From Escherichia phage EK010, in sequence record NC_070981.1: a stretch of DNA of 64,000 nt. One strand, written 5' to 3'. The notes beneath the pieces are model-generated. The model made no database searches and was not told where the DNA came from. It saw nothing but the letters and a program-made list of their open reading frames with translations. Position numbers and translations under genes: made by a program. Shown piece after piece: positions 31,891 to 56,615 of the stretch. How positions within the stretch are numbered: position 1 is the stretch's first letter; each line of letters begins with the position of its first letter.

Positions 31891-32157
31891 ATGGATTTTA
31901 GTTCAGCACTTATTAAAGTAAAAGAAGGTAAGAAGATTGCTCGTTCTGGTTGGAATGGTGCAAATCAGTTCGTCATCAAAGCAGGTGGATATGAAGTAGA
32001 AGAAGCTCGACCGGGTTCTGATTATGAAAAAGCTGGCATCACAGGTCGATTCACTATCGCCCCTCATTTAGACTTAAAGAATGCTCAGGGTATTATGCAA
32101 CCCGGATGGGTTCCATCTCAGGGTGATTTATTTGCAGATGATTGGGAGGTCTTATGA
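31891..32157 (+). CDS. hypothetical protein (88 aa), last gene of + arm
   Basis: AGGAG RBS. Confidence 0.5.
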   Translation: MDFSSALIKVKEGKKIARSGWNGANQFVIKAGGYEVEEARPGSDYEKAGITGRFTIAPHLDLKNAQGIMQPGWVPSQGDLFADDWEVL

Positions 32158-32341
32158 TTGACTTCGAAGAAGAAAATTGGGATGTGTGATGAATTCGATG
32201 GATTCTAGTAGCCTTGGGTTTTCTCTTTGTTCTAATAGTTCCTATTAAGAGTAAGGACACACCCCCTACTGTACAGTAGATATGGCAAGAGAAGTGATAA
32301 AGGTTTGATATAAAACGTCGAACCTGTATCTAGAAATAAAG

Positions 32342-32369
32342 AAGCCCCCTTCCTTTCGGTTGGGGGCTT
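32342..32369. terminator. bidirectional terminator at the convergent arm junction
   Basis: 8-bp stem AAGCCCCC/GGGGGCTT with 12-nt loop, T-rich on + side and U-rich on - side; lies between last + gene and stop of last - gene. Confidence 0.6.
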
Positions 32370-32376
32370 TTCTTGT

Positions 32377-35300
32377 TTACTCCTTAGCTCGAACTCTAAC
32401 ACGAAGTTTAGCTTGACGCTTACTTCTCTCCAACTTGTCAGACAGAGAACCACGTTTGACTTTCAACTCTCCCTCGTCATTATACTTCTCCAAGAACTGT
32501 AAATACTCTTGTCGAGTAGTTGTCTTGTAAGAAGGAATCTTAGCATTAGGATTCGCTTCAATCACACGTCTAATCTTAGCTACATCATCCCTCCCTAAAA
32601 GTTTCCCTTTAGCTTGTTCTGCTGTAGAACCAAAGATTTTCTCAAGTGCTCGAGATTTGTTACCACCTGCCGAAGCAGCACCAAGTTTCGCAATAGCAGA
32701 ATAATCATCAGCACTAAACCAAGCCACTGGATTATCTCCATAACGTTTCTTGTTCTCAGCAGCAGTCTGTAGAGCACGTACAAATCGACGGTTGTTACCA
32801 GCCTTATCTGCACCATGAACCCTATCTAGAACCTCTGCAACACTCGCCAACTCCTGCAAGTCTTTCCCTTCAATAAAAGCTTTCTCTGCTTTGTTAGCAA
32901 AGTCGTCTTCCTGCTTTTTAATACTTTCAAGAATATCAGAGTTAGCCTGAGATCTTTCATCCTCAGGTAGAGCGGAACGAATCTTCTCCATTTCTTTCTC
33001 TTCATCTAAAAGTTTCTTAAAGTCAGAATCAACTTTACGAGCATCTTCGATAGCTTTTGCTGTTTCTGCATCAAGGTCAGAAGCTTTCCCGTCTGCATCA
33101 CCAGTTGCCTTAGCAATCTCTCTTTCGATTGGAGTAGCTGTTTCATACTTCTTAACAAACTTCTCTACGTCAGATTCGATACGAGCACGAGCATTCTGAT
33201 GTTCCACTGGAGTCATAGGTTTCTCTAACAAAGCATACCGATTATCCATATAAGAACCAGCATACGCTTCAGCATCCTCCCTAGAAACCCCCTTCTCTTC
33301 CAGAGTGTTGACTAAACGCTTATGAATGTCATCACGTTGACGTTGAACTGCCATTAGGTCATTCTCCCGTTCCTGAGCTTCTTTCAGAGCCTTATCTCTC
33401 TTCACTCTAGAATCAATATCAAACCTACGGTTCATTTCCTCAGCCTGTTCATACATTCTATTCCACTTAGCCTCACGAGCATCTTCCTCTGCTTCGGTCA
33501 AACGTCGTTTGCGATCGAGGTAATCACTCTCAGCGTTGTGAATACGTTCAATAATACTACGGAAACGCTCTGGTGGTACTGGAGAGTTTTTATCATGGTG
33601 AGCAGCAAGCTGTTTCAAAGTACGACCTTCCTGAGCTTCTCTGACACTTTCAGGCAACTCTTTGAACATCTTCTCCATCTCGGATTTCTGAGCCGCTATA
33701 GCTTCCAAGGACTGCTTTTCAGCTTCCATAGCTGCCTTGGCATCATTACGAGCCTTAGCTCTGTTACGGAGCGTCTCAAGACGTTCTTGACGTGCTTGCA
33801 AGTGTTTAGCCGCTGCTTCGTATTGAGAGTTCTTGTTAGCCTTGTTGAACATGTTAACTTCTCGGTTATAGGTATTGATAAACCCATCCCACACATCCTT
33901 CATTTGACCAACTTCCAAAGCCTCAACCCTTCCAGCTTTTTCTGAAGATTTAAACTTACTCTCCACAAAGTCTTCCATAATCCTACGCATAGCATCTTTC
34001 TGAGCAGGACGTAAAGGTTCTGCATCAAGCAGTGTACCAATTTCATCCTGAAGCTCTTTCTTCTGATCTACCAGTTTAGGAGCATCTTTCTTGTCAAAAG
34101 CTTTATTCTCTTCCAGAGCCTCTCGATAGAGACGGTCAAATTCATCATCTCTCTGTTTCTGATATAAACGCTCAGCTCTTCGTTTCAGTGAATCTAGGCT
34201 TGTGACGTTTCCACCCAAACCCTTCTCTTCAGCACGTAAAGCCTTAGTAGCAATATCAGAAGGCAATCCACGCTCTTTTACCCAATCAGCAAAAGAAGAA
34301 CGAACATGTTGAGACTTAGCAGAAGCAATACCTTGCTGTGAAGCTAGCTGGTTTCTAGCCATCTCTTCATGACGCTGTGTGTTGTTTGCTTGGTCTTCCT
34401 GACGGATACGACGCATAAGCTCTTTAGGGTCTCCTTTATAAGAAAGGAAGTTTTCCGCAGTAGCTTTAGCTTTAGCAGCAGCCGAATACAAAGAACGAGC
34501 AAATCGGTCAGCACGATCTTTTGTTGCCTGACGGGCAGCAGTTGACATAGAAGCCAGACGCTCTACACCGAGTGATGGTTTAACAGGCTCAAGAGCCTTC
34601 TCAGGAGCTTTAGGCGCACGAGCAGGTAATGGCTCAGGTTTCTCTTGAGGTTCCTCTACGGTCTTCTCAGGAGCTTCTTTAGCACGTTCCGCTTCCTCTG
34701 CTTCTTGACGTTTCTTCGCTTCTGCTACAGCTCTGCGCTGAGCTACTAGCTCTCTTGCTGTAAGAGCTTCTTGCTGTGGTTCAGGTTCTGGTGTAGCACT
34801 TTCTTGAGCCTGAGCAGCTTCAGCTTCTTGACGTCTAAGCTCTGCTTGTTGGAGAGCACGTCTTTGAGCAACTAGATCCCTCGCAGTAAGAGGTGTTTCA
34901 GTTGGAGCTGGAGAGGAAGGAATTTCTTCCGTCACAGTAGTAGCAGAAGGCTCCTCACGAACCGGTTCGGAAGGTGCATCATTTTGAGTACGGAATTTGA
35001 TGTCTTCTGTGGTTGGTTCTTCTTCCATTTTTGCTCTTGCTTCTTCAGCCTGAGTCCTAGCTCGTTGTACTTCTAAATCAGCCCTAGCCAAAGAGCGGAT
35101 AGCTTCGCTATTAGCTGACTGTTGCTTCTCACGTTGAGCACGAGCACGATCGGAAGTAAAGCGGTTAAGTACATACTTGGCTGCACCGAGAGGATTCTTA
35201 ACTAACACAGGAGCCGGAGCTTCACGAAAACCGTCATCAGTCAGAGAGGTCCAACCACGGTCTTGGTTACTCATGAACTTAGCTGTATTATTCAGAGTGA

Positions 35301-36822
35301 AAGCATCTTGGATAGGGTTAAAACCTTCAGGCATACCTTTTAGTTTCTTTAATCCACCAATGGCCTTCTTCATTTCTGGAGAAACATTTTCAGAGAGCTT
35401 CTGCAACTGAGTAGCTTTATCAATGAAGTTGTTTAGGTCTTCACCATCACGAGCTTTGAAACGATTAGCTTCACTGTAAAAAGTTTTATAAGCATCAATA
35501 AAATCACGATCAGCTTGAGTACGGTTTTTAATGTCAATAGCACTACCAGTAAAATCACCACTTGCTCTCAGAGCTACTAACTCTCGGTCTAGATTGTCTA
35601 GAACATCAGTAAGAGCTTTGGTGTTATCTTTAGTGTAGTCAGCCATTGCATCTTTCATTGCCACAGCTTGTTTCTGGTTGTACTCATTGTCAGCAAAAGC
35701 TTTACCTTGAGTCTTCTTAGGAGAAGCTAAAGGATTAAGACCGGGAACGTTAGAACTATCTTTCTGAACCGTAGCAGCCTTCTCTGCACGACTTTGATCT
35801 GTATTTAATATACGTTGAACAGCAGGAGAGTCCATAGCAACTGCATCTGTGATTCGGAAACCATTTTCATCCAGAAGGTTTAAAGCAGAGGCAGCATTAG
35901 CATTCTCAGCTTTAGCATAGGCTTCACGAAGTTCATCAGCGTTAGCAGCTTTACGAATAGCCTCATCTTCAGCAGCAATGTCAGTCTTAACATGCTCAGG
36001 AGTACGATCAAACACTTGAGGACTAGGACGACTTATTAACCCATGAACCCCACCAATCGCCCCACCATAAGCGGCACCGAGTGCACCTTCTTCAATAGCC
36101 CCTTCTAAGACATTAGCTAGAGTAGTGTCATCCCCATATTTGTTCTGAGCTTCAGCAGCACCAACAATAGCACCACCCTTAGCACCAGCAACTGCGTTAG
36201 AGGCTACGCTTTGTCCTACACGACCAAGAGTAGTAGAAGCTGTACCAGTCATGCCCGGAAGTATCTTCTGAGCAGCGTAGTTAGCACCACCAACAAGAGC
36301 AGCATCTAAGACTGACTTATCTTCATCTTCTTTAGGAGTTTGATCAGCATAAGCACGACCTGTTTCACGAGCTGCAATCACAGCAGCAGCAACAGCAGGG
36401 TTTGCAACTGTCAAACCAATATCAGCAGCAACACCAGCATACTGACCAGCTGTTTTACCAAAACCATCTTCTATCTTGGATAAGCGTTCTTCCAGCAATT
36501 GCTTAGAGTTCTCTTGAATGCGCTTACCGTAGCTTGTTTCCGAACCAGTTAGATTTTCACCAATCTCTACCAGCCCACCTAAACCTTTAGCAGCACTAGC
36601 TGCAATGTTAGCACCACCTGATTGAAGAGCGTTAGACACACCTTGAGCAAACTCCCCAATAGCACCTCGTTCTTCTTGTTGTGGTTGCTCTTGTGGTTGA
36701 GTCTCAGGAATAGTGCCCCCTGCTGCCTTGTATTGTTCTCTCATTTGAGCCTGTTGCTCTGGAGAGGCATTCAGATACGCAGGAGCTTTGGAAGCTTCTT
36801 CCCACGATTTTAAATTAGCCAT
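32377..36822 (-). CDS. large coiled-coil virion protein (1481 aa; candidate internal core/ejection protein)
   Basis: Ala/Glu/Lys/Arg-rich coiled-coil sequence; last gene of late operon; AAGGAG RBS; TAATGTATA 36 nt upstream. Confidence 0.5.
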   Translation of the reverse strand: MANLKSWEEASKAPAYLNASPEQQAQMREQYKAAGGTIPETQPQEQPQQEERGAIGEFAQGVSNALQSGGANIAASAAKGLGGLVEIGENLTGSETSYGKRIQENSKQLLEERLSKIEDGFGKTAGQYAGVAADIGLTVANPAVAAAVIAARETGRAYADQTPKEDEDKSVLDAALVGGANYAAQKILPGMTGTASTTLGRVGQSVASNAVAGAKGGAIVGAAEAQNKYGDDTTLANVLEGAIEEGALGAAYGGAIGGVHGLISRPSPQVFDRTPEHVKTDIAAEDEAIRKAANADELREAYAKAENANAASALNLLDENGFRITDAVAMDSPAVQRILNTDQSRAEKAATVQKDSSNVPGLNPLASPKKTQGKAFADNEYNQKQAVAMKDAMADYTKDNTKALTDVLDNLDRELVALRASGDFTGSAIDIKNRTQADRDFIDAYKTFYSEANRFKARDGEDLNNFIDKATQLQKLSENVSPEMKKAIGGLKKLKGMPEGFNPIQDAFTLNNTAKFMSNQDRGWTSLTDDGFREAPAPVLVKNPLGAAKYVLNRFTSDRARAQREKQQSANSEAIRSLARADLEVQRARTQAEEARAKMEEEPTTEDIKFRTQNDAPSEPVREEPSATTVTEEIPSSPAPTETPLTARDLVAQRRALQQAELRRQEAEAAQAQESATPEPEPQQEALTARELVAQRRAVAEAKKRQEAEEAERAKEAPEKTVEEPQEKPEPLPARAPKAPEKALEPVKPSLGVERLASMSTAARQATKDRADRFARSLYSAAAKAKATAENFLSYKGDPKELMRRIRQEDQANNTQRHEEMARNQLASQQGIASAKSQHVRSSFADWVKERGLPSDIATKALRAEEKGLGGNVTSLDSLKRRAERLYQKQRDDEFDRLYREALEENKAFDKKDAPKLVDQKKELQDEIGTLLDAEPLRPAQKDAMRRIMEDFVESKFKSSEKAGRVEALEVGQMKDVWDGFINTYNREVNMFNKANKNSQYEAAAKHLQARQERLETLRNRAKARNDAKAAMEAEKQSLEAIAAQKSEMEKMFKELPESVREAQEGRTLKQLAAHHDKNSPVPPERFRSIIERIHNAESDYLDRKRRLTEAEEDAREAKWNRMYEQAEEMNRRFDIDSRVKRDKALKEAQERENDLMAVQRQRDDIHKRLVNTLEEKGVSREDAEAYAGSYMDNRYALLEKPMTPVEHQNARARIESDVEKFVKKYETATPIEREIAKATGDADGKASDLDAETAKAIEDARKVDSDFKKLLDEEKEMEKIRSALPEDERSQANSDILESIKKQEDDFANKAEKAFIEGKDLQELASVAEVLDRVHGADKAGNNRRFVRALQTAAENKKRYGDNPVAWFSADDYSAIAKLGAASAGGNKSRALEKIFGSTAEQAKGKLLGRDDVAKIRRVIEANPNAKIPSYKTTTRQEYLQFLEKYNDEGELKVKRGSLSDKLERSKRQAKLRVRVRAKE

Positions 36823-36858
36823 AACGTCTCCTTATAAATAAAAATGTCCTACCTCCTA

Positions 36859-36867
36859 TATACATTA
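36859..36867 (-). promoter_or_regulatory. promoter-like motif TAATGTATA
   Basis: Intergenic, 36 nt upstream of ATG 36822 of the 1481-aa gene. Confidence 0.45.
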
Positions 36868-36892
36868 TAAGAGATAGGACTTAGGTCTTAGA

Positions 36893-38560
36893 TTACTGTA
36901 ACATCCAACTCGTGTCCGCTGGAGCAGAAGAAAGAGCGCCTGTTAATCGAGGATTTGTAGCATCTCCACCAACAGCTGCTTCAGCTTCACTCTCAAACGT
37001 ACCGAATGGGTCATAGAAACCAGCAGAAGGAATAGCACGGTTGACAAGAGCTGTCGCTCGTTTCTTATCCATACCAGAACCGATATATGCCTCAATTGTT
37101 GCTTTCTTAGCATCCTTCACACCTTTCTCAGCAGAAGTAGCACCAACAGTTGCCTGCTTACGAGCATATGACAGAGCAGCATCAGAAGGACGATAACCTG
37201 CTTTAAGGGACCATGTATTACCCAACTTAACAAAGATGGACGGGTCTTCTGCAAAGTGGGCTAAGTCATCAGCTTGGAGAGAACGGTTAGCACCGATTTC
37301 TGCCCTTGCGGAGTTCATGATAGCCTGCATGTAAGCAGAACGAGCAGTTTGGTAATCCTTATCCTTAACAGCTTTGTCTGCTAAATCCAAGTCCTTATGA
37401 GACTGGTTGAACAGACCTGCTTTCTCTGCCCACTGCTTAGCAACTGTACCTTCTGCTGTGTTCTGAGCAAGACGAACTTCTTTCGGATTGAAAGTAAAGC
37501 TCTGAGCAGCTTTCTCTGCACGATCTGCTTTAACTTGATCACGATATCCAATAAGTTCTTTCTGTTTCTCGAACTGAGCATTAGCACGTTCTTCAGCAGC
37601 ACGACGAGTTTCAGCAGCACGTTCCCGCATCGAATTCTCTTGAATCTGTTGACGTCTATCCCACTCACGATTGGCACGTTCTTCATCCTGAGCAGCAAGA
37701 GCCATTTTCTCCTGAGGACTCATCTGACGCATCTTGAGAAGAGAAGGATCTCCCGAAGCAATTGCAGCAGCAACTGAATCTTGAGAGTAGCCTTGTTCTA
37801 ACAGAGCATCACGGTTGGCTTCTAGTTGTTGTTTAGTTTCATCCTGAGCAGCTAAGCCAGAACCAATCTGGAAAGCTTCAATAGGGGATTTACCTGACAT
37901 GATAGAAAGACCAACACCCATTAAGCCAGTATAGAAACTAGACTTCTGGTAGAATGGTTGCTTCTGAAGCTCATTCCAAGCTTGTGCTGGATCTTTAGCT
38001 TTAGCTACTTCCATAATATCATTATTAATACGTTCTTGGTCTTTAGCACGAGTTGCACCAGCCATACCTTCAGGAGCTGGATTACTATTAGCTAGAGTGT
38101 TAATAACATTCTGAGCCTGTTCCACTTGAACTGGAGAGAACTCTTTATCTGTTTCTTCCAAAGGTTTACGAGGAGGAGTAACAGGAAGTGGGTCACTAGG
38201 CATCAATCCAGCAGCTTGTAGACCTTCATCAGAGGATAGATCTGGGTTATTTATAGCAGGAGCTGGTTCGCCAATATCAATACCCTGAAGGCTTGTAGGA
38301 GTCCCTTGATTCTCTGCTTCCATAAGGCGCTGTCTAAATCCCGGATTTAACATAGCTTCTTGGTCCTCTTGAGCAGTAGCAACAAGAGAGGATAAACCTA
38401 CAGGAGAAGCAGGAGGTCTCCGGTTATACATAGAAACATCAGCAGCTGGGTAAGTAGGTCTTGCCATGTATGGAGAGGCCGAAGCGGCCCCTTGTTTAAC
38501 ACCATAGATCTGATTTCTTGGGTCTTGACTGCGAAGATACGCATAAGAAGTTTGTTGCAT
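36893..38560 (-). CDS. virion protein (555 aa)
   Basis: ATG ORF with AGGAG RBS within structural module. Confidence 0.5.
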   Translation of the reverse strand: MQQTSYAYLRSQDPRNQIYGVKQGAASASPYMARPTYPAADVSMYNRRPPASPVGLSSLVATAQEDQEAMLNPGFRQRLMEAENQGTPTSLQGIDIGEPAPAINNPDLSSDEGLQAAGLMPSDPLPVTPPRKPLEETDKEFSPVQVEQAQNVINTLANSNPAPEGMAGATRAKDQERINNDIMEVAKAKDPAQAWNELQKQPFYQKSSFYTGLMGVGLSIMSGKSPIEAFQIGSGLAAQDETKQQLEANRDALLEQGYSQDSVAAAIASGDPSLLKMRQMSPQEKMALAAQDEERANREWDRRQQIQENSMRERAAETRRAAEERANAQFEKQKELIGYRDQVKADRAEKAAQSFTFNPKEVRLAQNTAEGTVAKQWAEKAGLFNQSHKDLDLADKAVKDKDYQTARSAYMQAIMNSARAEIGANRSLQADDLAHFAEDPSIFVKLGNTWSLKAGYRPSDAALSYARKQATVGATSAEKGVKDAKKATIEAYIGSGMDKKRATALVNRAIPSAGFYDPFGTFESEAEAAVGGDATNPRLTGALSSAPADTSWMLQ

Positions 38561-38574
38561 AATTATTCTCCTAA

Positions 38575-39543
38575 TTAAGAGCTAGCTAAGCCACCGATAA
38601 CACCGCCAGCTAAAGCGCCCCAAGGGCCAAAAGCTGAACCAGCAGCAGCACCACTCGCAGCACCACCTAGGAAGCCTCCACTACCACCAGATGTTTTAGT
38701 AGTTGTGGTTGTCCCTAAAGCTCCATTAAGAACCCCGGCAGCACCTAGTTGATTGTTAATATCCTGCCAACCCCAATTAGCAGCATTCTGAGCATTCTCA
38801 TAAGCATTGTTCAAATCAGACTGCTGTTGTTGCTGCTGTTGCAGTCCTGCATTCCACTGATTCATCATTTGCTGTTGTGATAGCTGACCAGCTTGGTTTC
38901 CTAGATTAGCAAGGTTGGAGCCAATGTTAGATAAACCACCCAAAGCAGATGCTTGTGTTTGTCTATTACCAGAAAGAATGTTCTGTGCTTGAGTTAGAGC
39001 GGAGTCATAAGCACTATTAGTAATATTAGTTGCTGTGTTCTGCATCTGGTTCAGAGCATCACCCTGAGCAAAAGATTTAGCCATACGTGCACCAGAACCT
39101 TGCTGACCAGCAAACTGCTGAGAGATTTGAGGAAGTGCATTCCTAGCCAAACTCTGTTGGGTTTGTTCATTATTCGCTGCAATAGCTGCTTGCACAGCCT
39201 CGTCGTCATAGAGCTGGCCTGCAAGAGCACCAATCTGTTCTCCAGTGATTTGACCAGAGTTTGAAAGGTTATTGTATCCAGAGTATGCATTATCTAGATA
39301 ACCTAAGCCAGATTGAGCAGCATCCATATACTGAGAAGAAAGTGCACCTAATGCACCAGATTGTGATAGATTGTTCAGAGCCTCTTGCTGGTTTTGATTA
39401 AGTCCAACATTTTCTCGATACACATAATCGCCTGAACTAGTGTTATTAACCTGATTGACCAACTGATCAATATAGGATTGAATGTAGTCAGGTCTTGTCA
39501 TTTTAGAAGTAGTCTTGCTACTCCCACCACCAAATAAAGCCAT
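38575..39543 (-). CDS. Gln/Asn/Gly-rich low-complexity virion protein, paralog 2
   Basis: N-terminal 'MALFGGG', Q/N-rich body, Gly-rich hydrophobic C-terminus; paralog of upstream gene. Confidence 0.5.
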   Translation of the reverse strand: MALFGGGSSKTTSKMTRPDYIQSYIDQLVNQVNNTSSGDYVYRENVGLNQNQQEALNNLSQSGALGALSSQYMDAAQSGLGYLDNAYSGYNNLSNSGQITGEQIGALAGQLYDDEAVQAAIAANNEQTQQSLARNALPQISQQFAGQQGSGARMAKSFAQGDALNQMQNTATNITNSAYDSALTQAQNILSGNRQTQASALGGLSNIGSNLANLGNQAGQLSQQQMMNQWNAGLQQQQQQQSDLNNAYENAQNAANWGWQDINNQLGAAGVLNGALGTTTTTKTSGGSGGFLGGAASGAAAGSAFGPWGALAGGVIGGLASS

Positions 39544-39552
39544 AGCTCCTCC

Positions 39553-40605
39553 TTAATTTGCTCCAAAGGCTCCTAGAACACCACCTAAGATATTACTCCC
39601 TGCGGTAGATAACCAGTTGCTCTGACTATTCTGTTGAGACAGGTTTGAGCCACCAATCATAGGACCAGCCATCCCAGCTTGACCTCCAGAAGCATTGTAC
39701 GAATTCCAAGCATTAGTAGTTTGCTGGTTAGGGGTAAAAGCACCTAGACGACCAGCAATACCAAGACCAGTAATCCCAGCACCAAGGATTTGTTGTGAAG
39801 TATTAGGGGCAGCACCTTTATTAGTAATAGTGTACCCAGCCATTGGACTTACTGAGTTTAATACATTAAGCTGATTGTTAAGCCGATTCCAACCATACTG
39901 CTGACTGCCAATAGTATTCTCCCAATTGTTGTTAGCTTGGAGTTGATCTTGCTGCTGTTGAAGGTTTCCAGCAGTGAGCTGATTCTGTATTGCTTGTTGA
40001 CCAGCTTGTACTCCAGCAGCACCTAGATTCAAGTTCTGACCTGCTAGACCAGATTGAGCATTTAGCAAACCTTGCTGATAAGAGCTGTTATTCAGAAGAT
40101 TACTAACACCCATATTTTTACCCTGAATAGAGCGAGAGAGGTTAGTATTCGCTGAAGAAAGAGCAGCACCTTGGGCAGCAGCACGTCTCAGAGAACCTGA
40201 GTCAGATCCATTGCCAAGGGATACATTAGCAGCAGCTTTACCTGTAGACTTAGCTAGTGCAGAATTATTCAATCCAGAACTAAAGTTATTAACATCCTGA
40301 GCAGAGATACCACCTTTATTAACTAGGTTTTGGTATTTCTGAGCCAACTCATTCATCTGGTCTAGCCCTTGTTGAGTTCGAGGAGTATACATCTGACTAA
40401 ATTGGTTAAGTGTATTAGAGTTTGCTAAATTAGAAAGAGCTGCCGTTTGGCCTTCATTGAAGCCCGCTATATTACGACTGATGAACCCTTGGTCATTTTG
40501 ATTCATAGCTTGGGCATTGGCTACAATCTGTTTCAGAAGAGCATCAACCTGAGAAGACGGAGCTACCGTAGTCTTAGATTTAGGAGCAGAACCGAAAAGA
40601 GACAT
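39553..40605 (-). CDS. Gln/Asn/Gly-rich low-complexity virion protein, paralog 1
   Basis: N-terminal 'MSLFGSA', similar composition. Confidence 0.5.
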   Translation of the reverse strand: MSLFGSAPKSKTTVAPSSQVDALLKQIVANAQAMNQNDQGFISRNIAGFNEGQTAALSNLANSNTLNQFSQMYTPRTQQGLDQMNELAQKYQNLVNKGGISAQDVNNFSSGLNNSALAKSTGKAAANVSLGNGSDSGSLRRAAAQGAALSSANTNLSRSIQGKNMGVSNLLNNSSYQQGLLNAQSGLAGQNLNLGAAGVQAGQQAIQNQLTAGNLQQQQDQLQANNNWENTIGSQQYGWNRLNNQLNVLNSVSPMAGYTITNKGAAPNTSQQILGAGITGLGIAGRLGAFTPNQQTTNAWNSYNASGGQAGMAGPMIGGSNLSQQNSQSNWLSTAGSNILGGVLGAFGAN

Positions 40606-40614
40606 ATGTCCTCC

Positions 40615-41412
40615 TTATCTGTAAATGTCAGTGCCTATGCTAGACAGACGTCTAAGCACGGCTTGTGTTTGTGGACTATATCGAGAACCTGCCTGAGTGG
40701 GAGCATGTGCTCTTTGCACAGTTTGAGAGTTAGGTTGCTTTCCTGCAAGCATAGAGGCAGCTGCCAATACAGCATTACCAAAATTCTGTTGAGGTTTTTG
40801 ATCCTCTCCGGAAGATTGTTCGTCAGAGTAAAACTCTACAGGACTACCACCTAAAGCTCCAGCCTTACTTGCAGCTATCTCTGCCTGAGTTGGAGCATTA
40901 GCAGCTCCTTCTTTAGTAAGTGTGTTAGAGCCGAATTGGTCTACAGGTTGTGCTGCTTTCAAAGCACCGACAGGGTTAGCCACTTGAGATGCTGCTGTAT
41001 TCTTATCAAAGAATGGTAAGAATAACTTGTTGTTCATAGAATCTAAAGCTTGAGGAGTAAACCCACGCTTACCAGAGAACATCTGTTTTGCACCACCAGT
41101 CCCTTCTGAATATCCCACCAAAGCTTTCCTCACATCACCATCAAAAGCTTTTAGGTTGTCTCTCAAATACCTAGCACCCATATCAATATTCTTTGCAGGG
41201 TCTAATCTATCTTCTAGTTTGTAACCATAATCTTTAGCCAACCCTTTACTGATTTGCATTAAACCTACTGGCCCTGTACCTGATGCAACAGAGGGTCTAC
41301 CACTAGACTCCCTCTGGATAACTGCATGGATAAGAGCAGCAGGAATGCCGTACTTCTTAGAAGCTTGCTGGACCATAGGATCTAGCTCAGACACTCCCAT
41401 TCTTATTGTCAT
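40615..41412 (-). CDS. lytic transglycosylase (SLT domain) virion protein
   Basis: 'GLMQISKGLAKDYGY' and 'RES' motif context typical of SLT domains. Confidence 0.55.
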   Translation of the reverse strand: MTIRMGVSELDPMVQQASKKYGIPAALIHAVIQRESSGRPSVASGTGPVGLMQISKGLAKDYGYKLEDRLDPAKNIDMGARYLRDNLKAFDGDVRKALVGYSEGTGGAKQMFSGKRGFTPQALDSMNNKLFLPFFDKNTAASQVANPVGALKAAQPVDQFGSNTLTKEGAANAPTQAEIAASKAGALGGSPVEFYSDEQSSGEDQKPQQNFGNAVLAAASMLAGKQPNSQTVQRAHAPTQAGSRYSPQTQAVLRRLSSIGTDIYR

Positions 41413-41424
41413 ACGTCCTCCTTG

Positions 41425-42459
41425 TTATATACTTGCAAAAATTTTAGTTGCATCTAATACAGGAACGGAGATCCCTATAGTTGAGTTAGAGCCTAGGTCG
41501 TAGGAGTTATCCCACTGGAACATATACCTCCCATACCCTGTACCAAAAGAAGAACCATTCATAGTGTGTGACCTAGCATGTTGGAAATACCAACCACTAC
41601 CATTACCTCGGATAGCACCTACACCAGAAGATAAAGGTATCATTGGGTATGAGATTCCTGTATTCCCACCACTATAAGGCATAAAATTGTGAATCATCAT
41701 TGGTGTTCTGTAAGTAGAGAATACACACTGAGAACCGTTAGGAGAATAAATGTTCAGTCCACCGTTGTGAGTAGGAACACTGCCACCATCACAGAACACT
41801 GCAACCCTAACTGTTCCGATGTTACCACCTGCGTTGTTGTTTCCGTTGTTGTAAGATCTGTTTTGATATACCCGAATAGTTCTATCACCAGCTGTGTATA
41901 GAAGACCTGCACCACTGTTTGACCAATTGGCAAATACCATGTATCTGTTAGAATCAAACCCACTAATCGCAGGTATCTGCATAGAACCGTTGATTGTGCC
42001 CTCCCAAGCATAAATACACTGACCAACCGTACCACTATCAGAGATAGAGAAGTAGTCAGCTGTGTTTGAAAAAGTAATACCGTAGTTTCTGTTAGCTCTA
42101 GGCCAAATCTGGTATACGTTAAATCCACAGTCAAACAGAGGGTTACTTCCGGGGTTCTGGTTGATGCTGACCCTGAAGGTAGAGTTATTGATTACAGAAA
42201 TTCCAGTGACACAATAAACATCAGGAATTAAGTTAGGAGGAACTTCCCATTGCCAGCACAAACTGCCAATCGGAGCAATAACAATTTGACCTGAACCGTC
42301 CCATCCCGATATAGGGAAATCTCTGCTTCCTCCATTGAAGTTGTAGTTACCACTCACTCTATTCTTGAATTGAGGGAAAGTTGAACCACTATCAATAAAA
42401 AGTTCAGAAGGAGTTGCTGGTCCCGGCCCTACTGGTTTAGTCCAAATTCCATATGCCAT
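41425..42459 (-). CDS. tail/virion structural protein (344 aa)
   Basis: Position in structural module; beta-rich Gly/Ser/Asn-rich sequence. Confidence 0.45.
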   Translation of the reverse strand: MAYGIWTKPVGPGPATPSELFIDSGSTFPQFKNRVSGNYNFNGGSRDFPISGWDGSGQIVIAPIGSLCWQWEVPPNLIPDVYCVTGISVINNSTFRVSINQNPGSNPLFDCGFNVYQIWPRANRNYGITFSNTADYFSISDSGTVGQCIYAWEGTINGSMQIPAISGFDSNRYMVFANWSNSGAGLLYTAGDRTIRVYQNRSYNNGNNNAGGNIGTVRVAVFCDGGSVPTHNGGLNIYSPNGSQCVFSTYRTPMMIHNFMPYSGGNTGISYPMIPLSSGVGAIRGNGSGWYFQHARSHTMNGSSFGTGYGRYMFQWDNSYDLGSNSTIGISVPVLDATKIFASI

Positions 42460-43499: not shown

Positions 43500-43517
43500 A
43501 AGGGGCCGAAGCCCCTT
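43500..43517 (-). terminator. rho-independent terminator (UUCG tetraloop)
   Basis: minus-strand AAGGGGC-UUCG-GCCCCUU followed by U-rich tract. Confidence 0.55.
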
Positions 43518-54459: not shown

Positions 54460-55578
54460 TTAAGCACCAGATTTAACGGTGTAGGTTTTGAACACTGTAG
54501 AACCTGGGTCAGTTCTCAGGGTTACTTTAGTATCTTCACTAGTGATAGCACCAGAGAGCGTAATTGTTAAAGCATCACCAGAAATGGTAATACTCAATTT
54601 GTCTGCATCTGTGCCTTCTACATCATATACGATAGTTCCTAGTGGAGCACCTTGAGGAACAGAAGCTATGTTAAAAACTCCTGGTTGGCTTGGGTCTGAG
54701 ATTGTCAAAGTATCACCAGCTACTGACCCATCAGACACTGCTGAAACAACTAAACCAGTAAGTTTAGGTATTACGTCTTCTATGGTAGAAGTTGCAGTTA
54801 CTGAAGTCTGGGTTTTATGAGTAGCCTTAACAGTTACATTGTCATTCGCTGTATCTGACAAGGTTAACAAGCCAGAGGTAGCATTAACAGAACCGGCAGC
54901 AGTTGGAGTTACTACGAAATTATAGTTAGTAGCAGCTGAGCGTTGAACAGTAAACATATCTGTAAAAGCGACACTGTCTCCACCAGATTTTCCAGTAATA
55001 GCAGCTTTAGCCGCGATAGTTGGAGGCTGAGGGTTGACAACAACGTTAATCACTTTAGTGACAGAAGGTTTAGTAGAAGATTTAACTGTAAGAGTAGTAC
55101 TACCTGCTGCAACAGCAGTTACACGACCAGCAGTTGTTACCGTAGCCTTAGTCGGATCTGCAATTTCCCAAGTAACACCTTGAGGTGCACCAGCAGGAGA
55201 TACAGAAGCAGTTAGATTGGTAGCATCTGGAACAGTTATGGTAAGAGTATCACCAGTTAGACCACCACCAGTTACAGCAATGGAAGCTGGGTCAGGGATT
55301 GGAGCTTTAATTTCCGAGATAACGGCAGTACCTGATACATCTTTAAGAGTAGCAGTCACTGTAATATCAGCGGTTTGAGGCGAACCTGGAGCAGTGAACA
55401 GTCCAGAAACAGAAATGGCCCCACCACCGGCTACTGACCAATCGAAGCCTGTAGTAGATGTGGAGCCATCGCTTAGTTCTGCTTCAGCTGTAAACTGTTG
55501 GGTAGCCCCGGTCAGCAGACTAGCCATTGACGCGGGACTAACAGTTACGCTGTCAACTGTTACGCCTCCACCTTTCCC
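54460..55578 (-). CDS. Ig-like-domain C-terminal extension of the major capsid protein, reached by -1 frameshift
   Basis: Open frame is -1 relative to MCP and begins inside the MCP 3' end; slippery G-GGA-AAG at 55578-55572; Ig-like repeats downstream. Confidence 0.5.
   Translation of the reverse strand, partial: GKGGGVTVDSVTVSPASMASLLTGATQQFTAEAELSDGSTSTTGFDWSVAGGGAISVSGLFTAPGSPQTADITVTATLKDVSGTAVISEIKAPIPDPASIAVTGGGLTGDTLTITVPDATNLTASVSPAGAPQGVTWEIADPTKATVTTAGRVTAVAAGSTTLTVKSSTKPSVTKVINVVVNPQPPTIAAKAAITGKSGGDSVAFTDMFTVQRSAATNYNFVVTPTAAGSVNATSGLLTLSDTANDNVTVKATHKTQTSVTATSTIEDVIPKLTGLVVSAVSDGSVAGDTLTISDPSQPGVFNIASVPQGAPLGTIVYDVEGTDADKLSITISGDALTITLSGAITSEDTKVTLRTDPGSTVFKTYTVKSGA
55539..55578 (-). 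other. programmed -1 ribosomal frameshift cassette: slippery heptamer G-GGA-AAG, 9-nt spacer, 8-bp hairpin
   Basis: Heptamer at 55578-55572 in MCP frame (Ala-Gly-Lys codons 346-348); stem TAACAGTT/AACTGTTA at 55562-55555 and 55546-55539. Confidence 0.5.
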
Positions 55579-56615
55579 GCAGCGGTGAACAATACACCAG
55601 AAGCATATGGGTTGCGGTGACGCAGACCAACTTCCATTTCGATCATCCATTTCTCGTAAGAACCATCTTTCGCCAGTTCAGTACGTTTCGGAGCACGAAG
55701 AACCATCTGAGTCCAGTCAGAGCTGCGGAAGAAGTAAACTGCATCAGCAGGCATCCAACGGTTAACGATGATTTTATAGCTCTGACCCAGCGGGTCAGTG
55801 ATGCTGTTAACTTCATAGATGAACTGTTTGGTGTTCTCAAAGATACGCTGACGAGAACCAACAGAGTTTTCCTGAAGCTTAGCAAAGATGCTAGCGTGAG
55901 CAGGGTTAATCATGATGATGTCTGCTTCAGAACCGGCGGTATACAGTTGCAGAGTCATATCAAAGATATCAGCTTCATCAAAACCGATGTTCGTAGTCGG
56001 GTTAGAAGCATTCTGTGCAACTTTAACAGTTACTGCACCAGTATCTGGGTCAGCAGGACCATCTTCTTTCTTAACAACACCACTAGCAACACCGTTGTGT
56101 GCACACAGGAACTGGAAAGCACCAGTCTTACGAGCAGCTGAGGTGTCATTCTGACCTACAACAGCAGGATCAGTTGCAGAGTTGGTCAGATACTGGTCTG
56201 CCAGAATATCGGTACGAGCCTGACCGGACAGCAAGATTTTCTCGAGGTCACGTTTAATCTCTTTACCTTTCTTCTCCAGCTGATACATCAGTTCACGACC
56301 ACGACCGTAGTTAGCGGTGGTGTTAGCAGTATCAGAAACACGAACAACTTTACGCAGGATCTGAGTAACGTTGGACTTGATTACAGTCGGTTTCATTTCG
56401 CCGTCTTCAGCACGAGAGCCTTCGACGTGGGCGTTGTTAGCATCTACGCTCGCCAGAGCATCGGTCTGCCAGCTGAAAATAGTCTGATTGATAGACTCTT
56501 TACCAGTCATAGACACAAACGGAGTGTCTTGCGGAGACAGGACAGAAATCCAGTTAGCAAAAGAAAGTTTTTTACCATTCTGGTCGTAAGATACAAATAA
56601 AGTTGGATTTGCCAT
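55560..56615 (-). CDS. major capsid protein
   Basis: 351 aa ORF directly downstream of scaffold gene, portal-scaffold-capsid order; frameshift into Ig-like extension. Confidence 0.6.
   Translation of the reverse strand: MANPTLFVSYDQNGKKLSFANWISVLSPQDTPFVSMTGKESINQTIFSWQTDALASVDANNAHVEGSRAEDGEMKPTVIKSNVTQILRKVVRVSDTANTTANYGRGRELMYQLEKKGKEIKRDLEKILLSGQARTDILADQYLTNSATDPAVVGQNDTSAARKTGAFQFLCAHNGVASGVVKKEDGPADPDTGAVTVKVAQNASNPTTNIGFDEADIFDMTLQLYTAGSEADIIMINPAHASIFAKLQENSVGSRQRIFENTKQFIYEVNSITDPLGQSYKIIVNRWMPADAVYFFRSSDWTQMVLRAPKRTELAKDGSYEKWMIEMEVGLRHRNPYASGVLFTAAGKVEA

Follow-up and report, generated by a model that had tools for sequence, protein, structure and literature searches.

The analysed window is a stretch of 64,000 nucleotides from Escherichia phage EK010 (NC_070981.1), which is 100% identical over the query to the kuravirus Escherichia phage E20-1. 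Two adjacent, complete open reading frames on the minus strand fill positions 38575-40605, exactly where an earlier note on this DNA had placed them, and are here called A322 and B350. Both are preceded by an AAGGAGG Shine-Dalgarno sequence, and 9-14 nt separate them from the adjoining genes. The features of the locus are as follows:

32335-32372, no strand assigned: GC-rich hairpin followed by a T-run, end of the late operon (sequence 3' of the 1481-aa reading frame, terminator scan)
32377-36822, minus: highly charged protein of 1481 aa (33% K/R/D/E) at the position of SU10 gp24 (synteny)
36893-38560, minus: protein of 555 aa at the position of the ejection protein SU10 gp23 (synteny; phrog_12130 only)
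38575-39543, minus: A322, complete reading frame of 322 aa starting MALFGGG, ortholog of SU10 gp22 and phiEco32 gp24, paralog of B350
38578-38691, minus: A322 residues 285-322, Gly/Ala-rich hydrophobic C-terminal tail GGFLGGAASGAAAGSAFGPWGALAGGVIGGLASS (sequence and hydropathy; alignment with S74-bearing homologs)
38719-39093, minus: A322 residues 151-275, Q/N-rich, predicted single long alpha-helix (AlphaFold2 and residue spacing)
39520-39543, minus: conserved N-terminal peptide MALFGGGS of A322, family motif M-x-L-F-G-G (alignment A1)
39544-39552, minus: 9-nt spacer between B350 and A322, with the A322 ribosome-binding site GGAGG directly after the B350 stop codon
39553-40605, minus: B350, complete reading frame of 350 aa starting MSLFGSA, ortholog of SU10 gp21 and phiEco32 gp23
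39556-39612, minus: B350 residues 332-350, second Gly-rich hydrophobic tail LSTAGSNILGGVLGAFGAN, terminal ILGGVLGAFGAN (sequence)
39736-39795, minus: B350 residues 271-290, internal glycine-zipper segment ILGAGITGLGIAGRLGAF (top hydropathy window of B350)
40582-40605, minus: conserved N-terminal peptide MSLFGSAP of B350 (alignment A1)
40615-41412, minus: lytic transglycosylase of 265 aa, ortholog of SU10 gp20 (PF01464 SLT, E 8e-25; phrog_12507)

The lytic transglycosylase that the earlier note saw next to the pair is borne out by its SLT domain. Its gene is the first of a five-gene ejection-protein block, and SU10 gp20 is itself an ejection protein. The window shares with SU10 the kuravirus order of needle, DUF6453, SLT, 350 aa, 322 aa, ~555 aa and ~1475-1481 aa genes, the last being at the position of gp24, the largest ejection protein of SU10 (PMC9509320). 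Metagenomic relatives of 44-47% identity, including contigs L004 and L005, keep an order of SLT, ~350, ~326-330, ~577-605 and ~1467-1736 aa. In PAS59 and contig L004, an Endonuclease VII gene (PF02945) is inserted at the spacer between the paralogs. The hairpin at the operon end lies where the block converges with plus-strand genes and GC skew changes sign, and the SU10 annotation has a terminator at the corresponding place. A promoter scan gave no enrichment (31 sites, 29.8 expected in shuffled sequence). A resemblance of the 555-aa neighbour to the C-terminal half of long fused homologs was too weak to rely on (33 columns, E 1e-3, probability 20%).

A322 and B350 are paralogs, as the earlier note had claimed, with 30% identity over 289 columns (BLASTP, E 8e-13) and one PHROG common to both, phrog_4287 “DNA ejection protein” (E 4e-99 and 8e-102, respectively). 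Their SU10 orthologs are collinear and ungapped, gp22 being 82% identical to A322 and gp21 78% identical to B350. In alignment A1, their N-terminal M1 and F4 never vary and G5 hardly does, and almost all of the 150 matches listed have the family domain beginning within ~10 residues of the N-terminus. Pfam returned no family for either protein at E <= 0.1, be it Peptidase_S74, a glycine zipper or a transmembrane family. Neither protein, nor a profile of 21 sequences, had a meaningful match in sequence searches of the PDB; the best ones, to CdiA (E 0.02) and Endonuclease I (E 0.89), were rejected as driven by composition.

This composition is extreme. Q, N, G, A and S make up 62.4% of A322 and 61.7% of B350, compared with a mean of 30.8% (sd 5.4, maximum 43.8) in the other 41 reading frames of at least 150 aa in the window, so that both proteins stand at z ~5.9. 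Q and N alone account for 24.5% and 26.0%, respectively, against 9.2% (sd 2.4; z 6.3-6.9). The dominance of these five residues described in the earlier note is thus real, while its term “low-complexity” suits only part of each protein. Low-entropy runs do exist (Q7, T5 and the Gly/Ala tail), making up 5-12% of the 12-residue windows, but the remainder is biased yet conserved and predicted to be ordered helix. A purely disordered, prion-like reading was rejected, since alignment A1 is conserved (mean column identity 50%) and residues 20-270 of A322 are predicted to be helical with a pLDDT of 77-91.

Structure prediction, a check that the earlier note had proposed, was informative for one of the two proteins. 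The AlphaFold2 model of A322, built on a 67-sequence alignment, is all-alpha with a mean pLDDT of 75.8, whereas that of B350 (21 sequences, pLDDT 56) was too poor for use. The long helix of A322 scores 77-91 across residues 151-275; it comprises 125 residues, would span ~19 nm if straight and has hydrophobic residues spaced 3-4 apart. As the model is that of a monomer with a pTM of 0.43, such a helix could also fold back on itself. Q and N contribute 43 of its 125 residues in A322 and 40 of 116 in B350. Foldseek of the A322 model against the PDB gave no match at E <= 1e-3. All that came back were long helical hairpins and coiled coils (from chemoreceptor signalling domains, colicins and Tc-toxin helices), which we do not read as homologs because they exceed this threshold, reach TM-scores of only ~0.2-0.4 and are generic long helices. 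Against BFVD, the same model matches proteins of uncultured phages that bear names such as ‘DNA transfer protein’, ‘internal virion protein’, ‘intramolecular chaperone auto-processing domain’ and ‘peptidoglycan binding’.

Gly/Ala-rich hydrophobic C-termini, likewise described before, are found in both proteins. The glycine zipper of B350 has G275 and G285 invariant and G277 and G282 nearly invariant in alignment A1, where B-type orthologs also keep the second tail as GGVLGAFGA. The tails are only moderately hydrophobic (Kyte-Doolittle 1.07-1.31 in a 19-residue window, under the threshold customary for transmembrane segments). The sequences show recurring small-xxx-small patterns, and homologs give weak, mostly sub-threshold matches to Gly-zipper_Omp or YMGG (best E 1.9e-5 to 2e-4).

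Longer relatives put these tails in a different light. The family domain of ~300 aa is the N-terminal module of phage proteins of 700-1770 aa that carry SLT or SleB-type hydrolase (Hydrolase_2) domains. Peptidase_S74 occurs in 12 of 48 long homologs and is the recurrent top Pfam match in homologs of 410-430 aa, with scores (22.1 bits for GAP52 gp22, 26.2 for P0075 and 24.8 for P0077) above the Pfam cut-off of 22 bits. The motif SD..[LIVMF]K directly follows the Gly-rich tail in 22 collected proteins. In the alignment with homologs, the A322 tail ends at the position of the S74 cleavage site; A-type kuravirus proteins end within 0-5 residues of it, and the stop of A322 coincides with it. A322 looks like the already cleaved form of its S74-bearing homologs, and judging from these sequences the Gly-rich tail is the mature end that a self-cleaving assembly domain leaves in the relatives. 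Characterised S74 intramolecular chaperones (endosialidase, T5 pb1, MYRF) trimerise the segment upstream of them and then cleave themselves off. The position of S74 directly after the Gly-rich tail, together with the A322 stop at that site, suggests a rod of three parallel chains whose hydrophobic tip is free, an argument transferred from relatives because A322 and B350 themselves are devoid of the domain. In the endosialidase tailspike, the T5 pb1 fibre and MYRF, S74 likewise follows the mature part with a Ser...Lys motif, but the upstream part is a beta-helical fibre or spike in S74 proteins versus an alpha-helical internal virion protein with a Gly-zipper end in this family. Our literature search found no paper linking S74 to ejection proteins.

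Experimental evidence on function comes from the orthologs. In purified SU10 virions, LC-MS/MS detected gp21 with 53% and gp22 with 49% coverage (PMC4281155). Gp20-24 were present in virions but absent from in-vitro genome-release intermediates by SDS-PAGE and mass spectrometry, which is why they were named ejection proteins, and cryo-EM resolved no density for them (PMC9509320). The more distant homolog gp18 of Proteus phage Privateer is recorded in its GenBank annotation as a virion protein verified by mass spectrometry. The inference of internal or ejection proteins made in the earlier note is therefore supported by orthologs of 78-82% identity that reside in virions and are released at genome ejection. 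Absence from virions, which it named as evidence to the contrary, does not hold for the SU10 orthologs, since both were detected there by mass spectrometry. By this sequence relationship, the identity of A322 and B350 as ejection proteins appears essentially right and has already been published for their orthologs.

We consider it probable that A322 and B350 are paralogous small kuravirus ejection proteins which form coiled-coil rods bridging the envelope, with their tails anchored in a host membrane. They would be made late, in one operon with the lytic transglycosylase and the two larger ejection proteins, loaded into the prolate head and driven out by way of the tail once the needle is lost. 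Each has three parts: the conserved M-x-L-F-G-G peptide at the N-terminus; a body of ~260 residues that is Q/N-rich and predicted to be all-helical, the last of its helices (~125 residues, ~19 nm) being on the scale of the periplasm; and a Gly/Ala-rich hydrophobic tail. Parallel coiled-coil rods, probably trimers, might form from these bodies and bring the hydrophobic tails together at the same end. Once ejected, the rods would lengthen the nozzle so that it crosses the cell envelope, with the tails inserting into or anchoring in a host membrane, while the adjoining transglycosylase would cut peptidoglycan and the larger ejection proteins would complete the conduit. For both proteins, we infer the helical rod geometry, the trimeric state, the membrane insertion and the target membrane. 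Insertion into the host envelope, which the earlier note had envisaged, is suggested by two features, the conserved Gly-zipper tails and the fusions to cell-wall hydrolases in relatives.

Both proteins could instead be core or packaging aids inside the head that arrange the DNA, cushion it or plug the portal and are flushed out with neither conduit nor membrane contact, their tails being flexible or contact segments. The authors of the SU10 study also use the term ‘putative core proteins’ for gp20-24 and report unassigned density in the portal barrel (PMC9509320), and the moderate hydrophobicity of the tails and the lack of a Pfam transmembrane or glycine-zipper match in A322 and B350 would suit such a role. 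We nevertheless find it unlikely. Fusions of the family domain to peptidoglycan hydrolases recur in other phages and an SLT gene adjoins the pair here, both of which argue for action in the envelope. Moreover, the Gly-rich tail is kept in very distant homologs, where S74 cleavage would expose it as a free C-terminus, and the weak Gly-zipper_Omp and YMGG matches of homologs also speak against a mere core aid.

Alternatively, the long Q/N-rich helices with Gly-rich hydrophobic segments at one end could build a many-stranded coiled-coil barrel with a Q/N-lined lumen through which the DNA passes, like the H-protein tube of phiX174, whose length we take to be similar to the ~19 nm predicted for the A322 helix. 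This likeness is one of composition and length only. There is no detectable H homology (hhalign probability 0.95%, with sensitivity limited by a single-sequence template; none in the PDB profile search), and the association with S74 in relatives favours trimers, too narrow for dsDNA, which makes such a barrel quite improbable. Least likely by far are external needle- or fibre-like tail components that would be shed with the tail needle rather than carried as capsid cargo. Tail fibres and spikes are the usual setting of S74 domains, and SU10 gp21 and gp22 are lost from particles along with the needle protein gp18 (PMC9509320). However, the SU10 virion tail has been modelled completely (portal, adaptor, nozzle, needle, long and short fibres) with neither of them (PMC9509320), the long homologs count as internal virion proteins by annotation or by a gene position downstream of the tail hub, and the genes of the pair stand in the ejection-protein block, after the needle gene.

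How envelope-bridging rods of this kind would relate to known systems can be judged from several comparisons. SU10 gp21/gp22 and phiEco32 gp23/gp24 match our pair in length (350 and 322 aa) and in their place between SLT and the 555- and 1480-aa genes, and we see no substantive difference between these pairs and ours. Homologs in Grimontviridae (Salmonella phage 7-11, Cronobacter GAP52 gp22, Proteus Privateer gp18) and the long fusions of uncultured podophages also begin with the Q/N-rich helical domain, and a Gly-rich hydrophobic segment comes after it. They differ in their C-terminal Peptidase_S74 or further SLT/Hydrolase_2 modules, which A322 and B350 lack, and in GAP52 and Privateer a single gene of ~410 aa matches with no paralog pair annotated, in contrast to the two genes of the kuravirus.

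In T7, gp14, gp15 and gp16 are internal to the head, one of them with transglycosylase activity, are ejected before the DNA and bridge the Gram-negative envelope. The functional setting is alike and the genes are likewise clustered after the tail genes, but SLT is a separate 265-aa protein here and the N-terminus of gp16 in T7, and there are five ejection proteins here as opposed to three. Further, SU10 shows no ordered core stack (PMC9509320), unlike the internal core of T7. Gp7, gp20 and gp16 of P22 are also released capsid cargo with no ordered virion density, encoded downstream of the needle gene, but P22 has no Q/N-rich paralog pair. Homology was detectable neither to T7 gp14 (hhalign of the 67-sequence profile, probability 0.1%, E 0.56) nor to P22 gp7 and gp20 (probability 2.2% and 0.2%), although sensitivity was limited because these templates, too, were single sequences; the PDB profile search returned no ejectosome chains.

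The find adds little by itself, as ejection proteins have already been shown experimentally in SU10. What the relatives contribute is the placement of S74 after the Gly-rich tail, which predicts a trimer, a parallel orientation with the tails together and a free hydrophobic C-terminus as the functional end. We tentatively propose, as a possibility rather than a likelihood, that gp21/gp22 represent a distinct class of podophage ejection proteins unrelated to the T7 and P22 sets. It would be defined by a parallel trimeric alpha-helical rod of ~19 nm that has as its functional end a free, Gly/Ala-rich C-terminal peptide similar to a viral fusion peptide, and in many phages S74 would fold the rod and then remove itself right behind this peptide. 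Kuraviruses would encode the ‘pre-cleaved’ form twice, and the same module would head giant, self-cleaving, hydrolase-bearing internal virion polyproteins. To our knowledge, the bridging of the Gram-negative envelope by short-tailed phages is structurally understood mainly for T7-like and N4-like phages (e.g. DEV), and a third, unrelated solution would, if true, interest phage structural biologists. Phage-therapy collections make use of kuraviruses. In the annotation of E20-1, the copies of A322 and B350 are each listed as ‘hypothetical protein’.

A322 and B350, two adjacent products of 322 and 350 aa, belong by every feature testable here to the family of SU10 gp22 and gp21, respectively, for which release from the virion has been shown in SU10 only. 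The positions and N-termini named in the earlier note coincide exactly with two minus-strand ORFs, and the transglycosylase gene it placed beside them is confirmed by an SLT domain:

38575-39543, minus strand: ORF of 322 aa (A322), N-terminus MALFGGG
39553-40605, minus strand: ORF of 350 aa (B350), N-terminus MSLFGSA
40615-41412: lytic transglycosylase gene adjoining B350, SLT domain (E 8e-25)

A canonical AAGGAGG ribosome-binding site precedes each of the two ORFs, that of A322 abutting the B350 stop codon, and only 9-14 nt separate them from neighbouring genes. By nucleotide search, a 3.5-kb query around both genes matched Escherichia phage E20-1 (OP293233.1, Gordonclarkvirinae, Kuravirus) at 100% identity, PAS59, Bas86, Bas87, and SU7 at 93-97%, and more distant kuraviruses at ~75%; phiEco32 and SU10 were reached by protein-level search (~78% amino-acid identity). 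Both genes are annotated as 'hypothetical protein' in E20-1, and the Bas86 and phiEco32 orthologs as 'DNA ejection protein'.

Two relatives carry an Endonuclease VII-family ORF (PF02945, E 5e-25 and 2e-27) exactly between the paralogs:

L013:1747-2196: Endonuclease VII-family ORF in PAS59 (~97% identical)
L004:11109-11498: Endonuclease VII-family ORF in a very remote relative from metagenomic data

The site is empty in E20-1 (9-nt spacer, 39544-39552). As the two insertions are independent, the spacer looks like a recurrent insertion point for homing endonucleases.

Gene order is identical in E20-1 and SU10, and A322 and B350 align collinearly and without gaps with gp22 (82% identity) and gp21 (78%). 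LC-MS/MS of SU10 virions detected gp21 at 53% and gp22 at 49% coverage (PMC4281155), and Šiborová et al. found gp20-24 by SDS-PAGE and MS in virions, from which in-vitro genome-release intermediates differed by missing them (PMC9509320). The earlier description as internal or ejection proteins is therefore correct at that level; absence from virions, the outcome it had named as speaking against it, is not what was found for the SU10 orthologs, both identified by MS. A322 and B350 are very probably ejected virion cargo, a finding already known, with the interpretation published for close orthologs.

The two proteins share 30% identity (E 8e-13) and both match phrog_4287, the PHROG family 'DNA ejection protein', end to end, and the paralogy proposed for them is thereby confirmed. 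Likewise, the proposed dominance of Q, N, G, A, and S is clear, with 62% in each protein (z ~5.9) against a mean of 30.8% (sd 5.4) in the other 41 window ORFs of at least 150 aa, and Q+N alone reaches 25-26% compared to 9.2% in those ORFs. The term low complexity holds for short runs (Q7, T5, the tails) but not for the bulk of the sequence, where residues are conserved and order is predicted. Gly/Ala-rich hydrophobic tails are indeed present in both, although their hydrophobicity is just moderate:

A322, residues 285-322: Gly/Ala-rich hydrophobic end
B350, residues 271-290 and 332-350: Gly/Ala-rich hydrophobic segments

PDB sequence and profile searches gave no entry related to either protein. 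The AlphaFold2 model of B350 was poor (21 sequences, pLDDT 56), and that of A322 (67 sequences, pLDDT 75.8) is all-alpha from residue 12 to 279, with no order in the 11 N-terminal and 43 C-terminal residues. Its final helix (151-275, 125 residues, ~19 nm if straight) has hydrophobic residues every 3-4 positions, resembling a coiled coil. Foldseek searches with this model against the PDB gave generic long helical hairpins only, none of them reaching E <= 1e-3. Searches against BFVD yielded 12 matches at E <= 1e-3, all from uncultured phages, with names such as 'intramolecular chaperone auto-processing domain containing protein' and 'peptidoglycan binding-like', and weaker ones named 'DNA transfer protein' and 'internal virion protein'.

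Word-indexed search found kuravirus-like proteins only, down to 40% identity, while an exhaustive profile search, run over 1.84 billion representatives, gave 296 matches (cut-off E <= 1e-3); among the matches listed, the domain starts within the first ~10 residues in almost all. Two distant contigs hold the whole module (SLT, ~350 aa, ~326-330 aa, ~577-605 aa, ~1467-1736 aa), so both paralogs were retained across that divergence. Isolated phages with the family comprise Grimontviridae (7-11-like Salmonella phages, GAP52, Privateer) and Aeromonas podophages. The match in GAP52 and Privateer is a single gene of ~410 aa with no adjacent second copy annotated, and the GenBank annotation of Privateer gp18 records an MS-verified virion protein. 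Many matches are proteins of 700-1770 aa with the family domain as their first ~300 residues; 48 of these long proteins included 12 with Peptidase_S74, four with SLT, and two with SleB-type Hydrolase_2, and the gene of one long homolog, annotated 'internal virion protein D', immediately follows that of a P22 gp10-like tail hub. That the family domain forms the N-terminal part of giant internal proteins bearing hydrolases is a modest new lead.

Peptidase_S74, a self-cleaving intramolecular chaperone domain, was also the recurrent top Pfam match in homologs of 410-430 aa, exceeding the 22-bit cut-off in GAP52 gp22 (22.1) and the collected homologs P0075 (26.2) and P0077 (24.8), and scoring below it at the same place in the remainder. 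Its start motif SD..[LIVMF]K directly follows the Gly-rich hydrophobic segment in 22 collected proteins: homolog P0087 reads ...GGAMSGAAAGATIGSVVPGVGTAIGAVAGGVIGGASGYF and continues with SDATLK, where A322 reads ...GGAASGAAAGSAFGPWGALAGGVIGGLASS and stops. All A322-like kuravirus proteins end 0-5 residues from the aligned serine. In endosialidase, T5 pb1, and MYRF, S74 domains trimerise the upstream segment and then self-cleave at that serine. If this applies here, homology would imply that cleavage leaves the mature protein of S74-bearing relatives with a free Gly-rich C-terminus, the very end that translation gives A322, that the C-termini lie parallel in trimers, and that kuraviruses have dispensed with the chaperone. 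Among the papers searched, none connected S74 domains with ejection proteins or internal virion proteins; the S74 connection and the free tail are new here and a modest lead.

The SU10 authors gave gp20-24 the name ejection proteins and suggested that these lengthen the nozzle so that it spans the periplasm; their density was not resolved (PMC9509320). A322 and B350 are very probably packaged in the head and expelled once the needle leaves. They might then form parallel coiled-coil rods, roughly matching the width of the periplasm in length, whose clustered Gly/Ala-rich tails would anchor at, or insert into, a host membrane, while gp20 would cut peptidoglycan and gp23 and gp24 would complete the conduit. 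Rods, trimers, and membrane insertion remain tentative details, and ejected cargo acting in this way is, as a whole, the explanation we favour with some reserve. Rival readings are a purely internal core or plug and a tube resembling that of phiX174 H, its lumen lined by Q and N; profile comparisons of the family with phiX174 H, T7 gp14, P22 gp7, and P22 gp20 were all negative, and the T7 and P22 ejection proteins occupy the same setting yet have no detectable homology. An external needle- or fibre-like component is unlikely because the SU10 tail model is already complete.

Several neighbouring features of the window deserve mention. Between the needle and transglycosylase genes, within the structural operon, a 344-aa DUF6453 protein (41425-42459, minus strand; 6 Cys, 9 Trp) has the PHROG label 'membrane protein', and Supplementary Table 1 of the SU10 study (PMC9509320) gives its SU10 ortholog, gp19, as undetected in virions. 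The 555-aa ejection protein (36893-38560, minus strand) has a Gly-rich segment, SSFYTGLMGVGLSIMSGKSPIEAFQIGSGLAA, at residues 206-238. By hhalign, this segment weakly matches (E 1e-3, probability 20%) AGLGMMAGxSPxAxxNIGxGG, a motif that the long fused homologs conserve in their C-terminal half, which hints that a single chain of these giants may unite modules resembling gp21/22, gp20, and gp23. The 1481-aa ejection protein (32377-36822, minus strand) is extremely charged (33% K/R/D/E, 15% Ala), had no Pfam match and only its own PHROG in the PHROG search, and is labelled 'Nuclear Pore Complex' in the SU10 authors' table. Terminator-like minus-strand hairpins with T-runs inside the late operon, at 36846-36880 between the 555- and 1481-aa genes and at 43500-43517 between the 999-aa nozzle and needle genes, may be attenuators or mRNA-stability elements setting ejection-protein stoichiometry. 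Two minus-strand ORFs, one of 351 aa at 55560-56615 and one of 396 aa at 54460-55650, share 91 nt; the two forms of the SU10 major head protein were explained by ribosomal slippage fusing gp9 and gp10 (PMC4281155), and this arrangement probably applies to 54460-56615 as well. Finally, GC skew changes sign at ~32000-32400, where a bidirectional GC-rich hairpin lies between converging plus-strand early/middle and minus-strand late genes.
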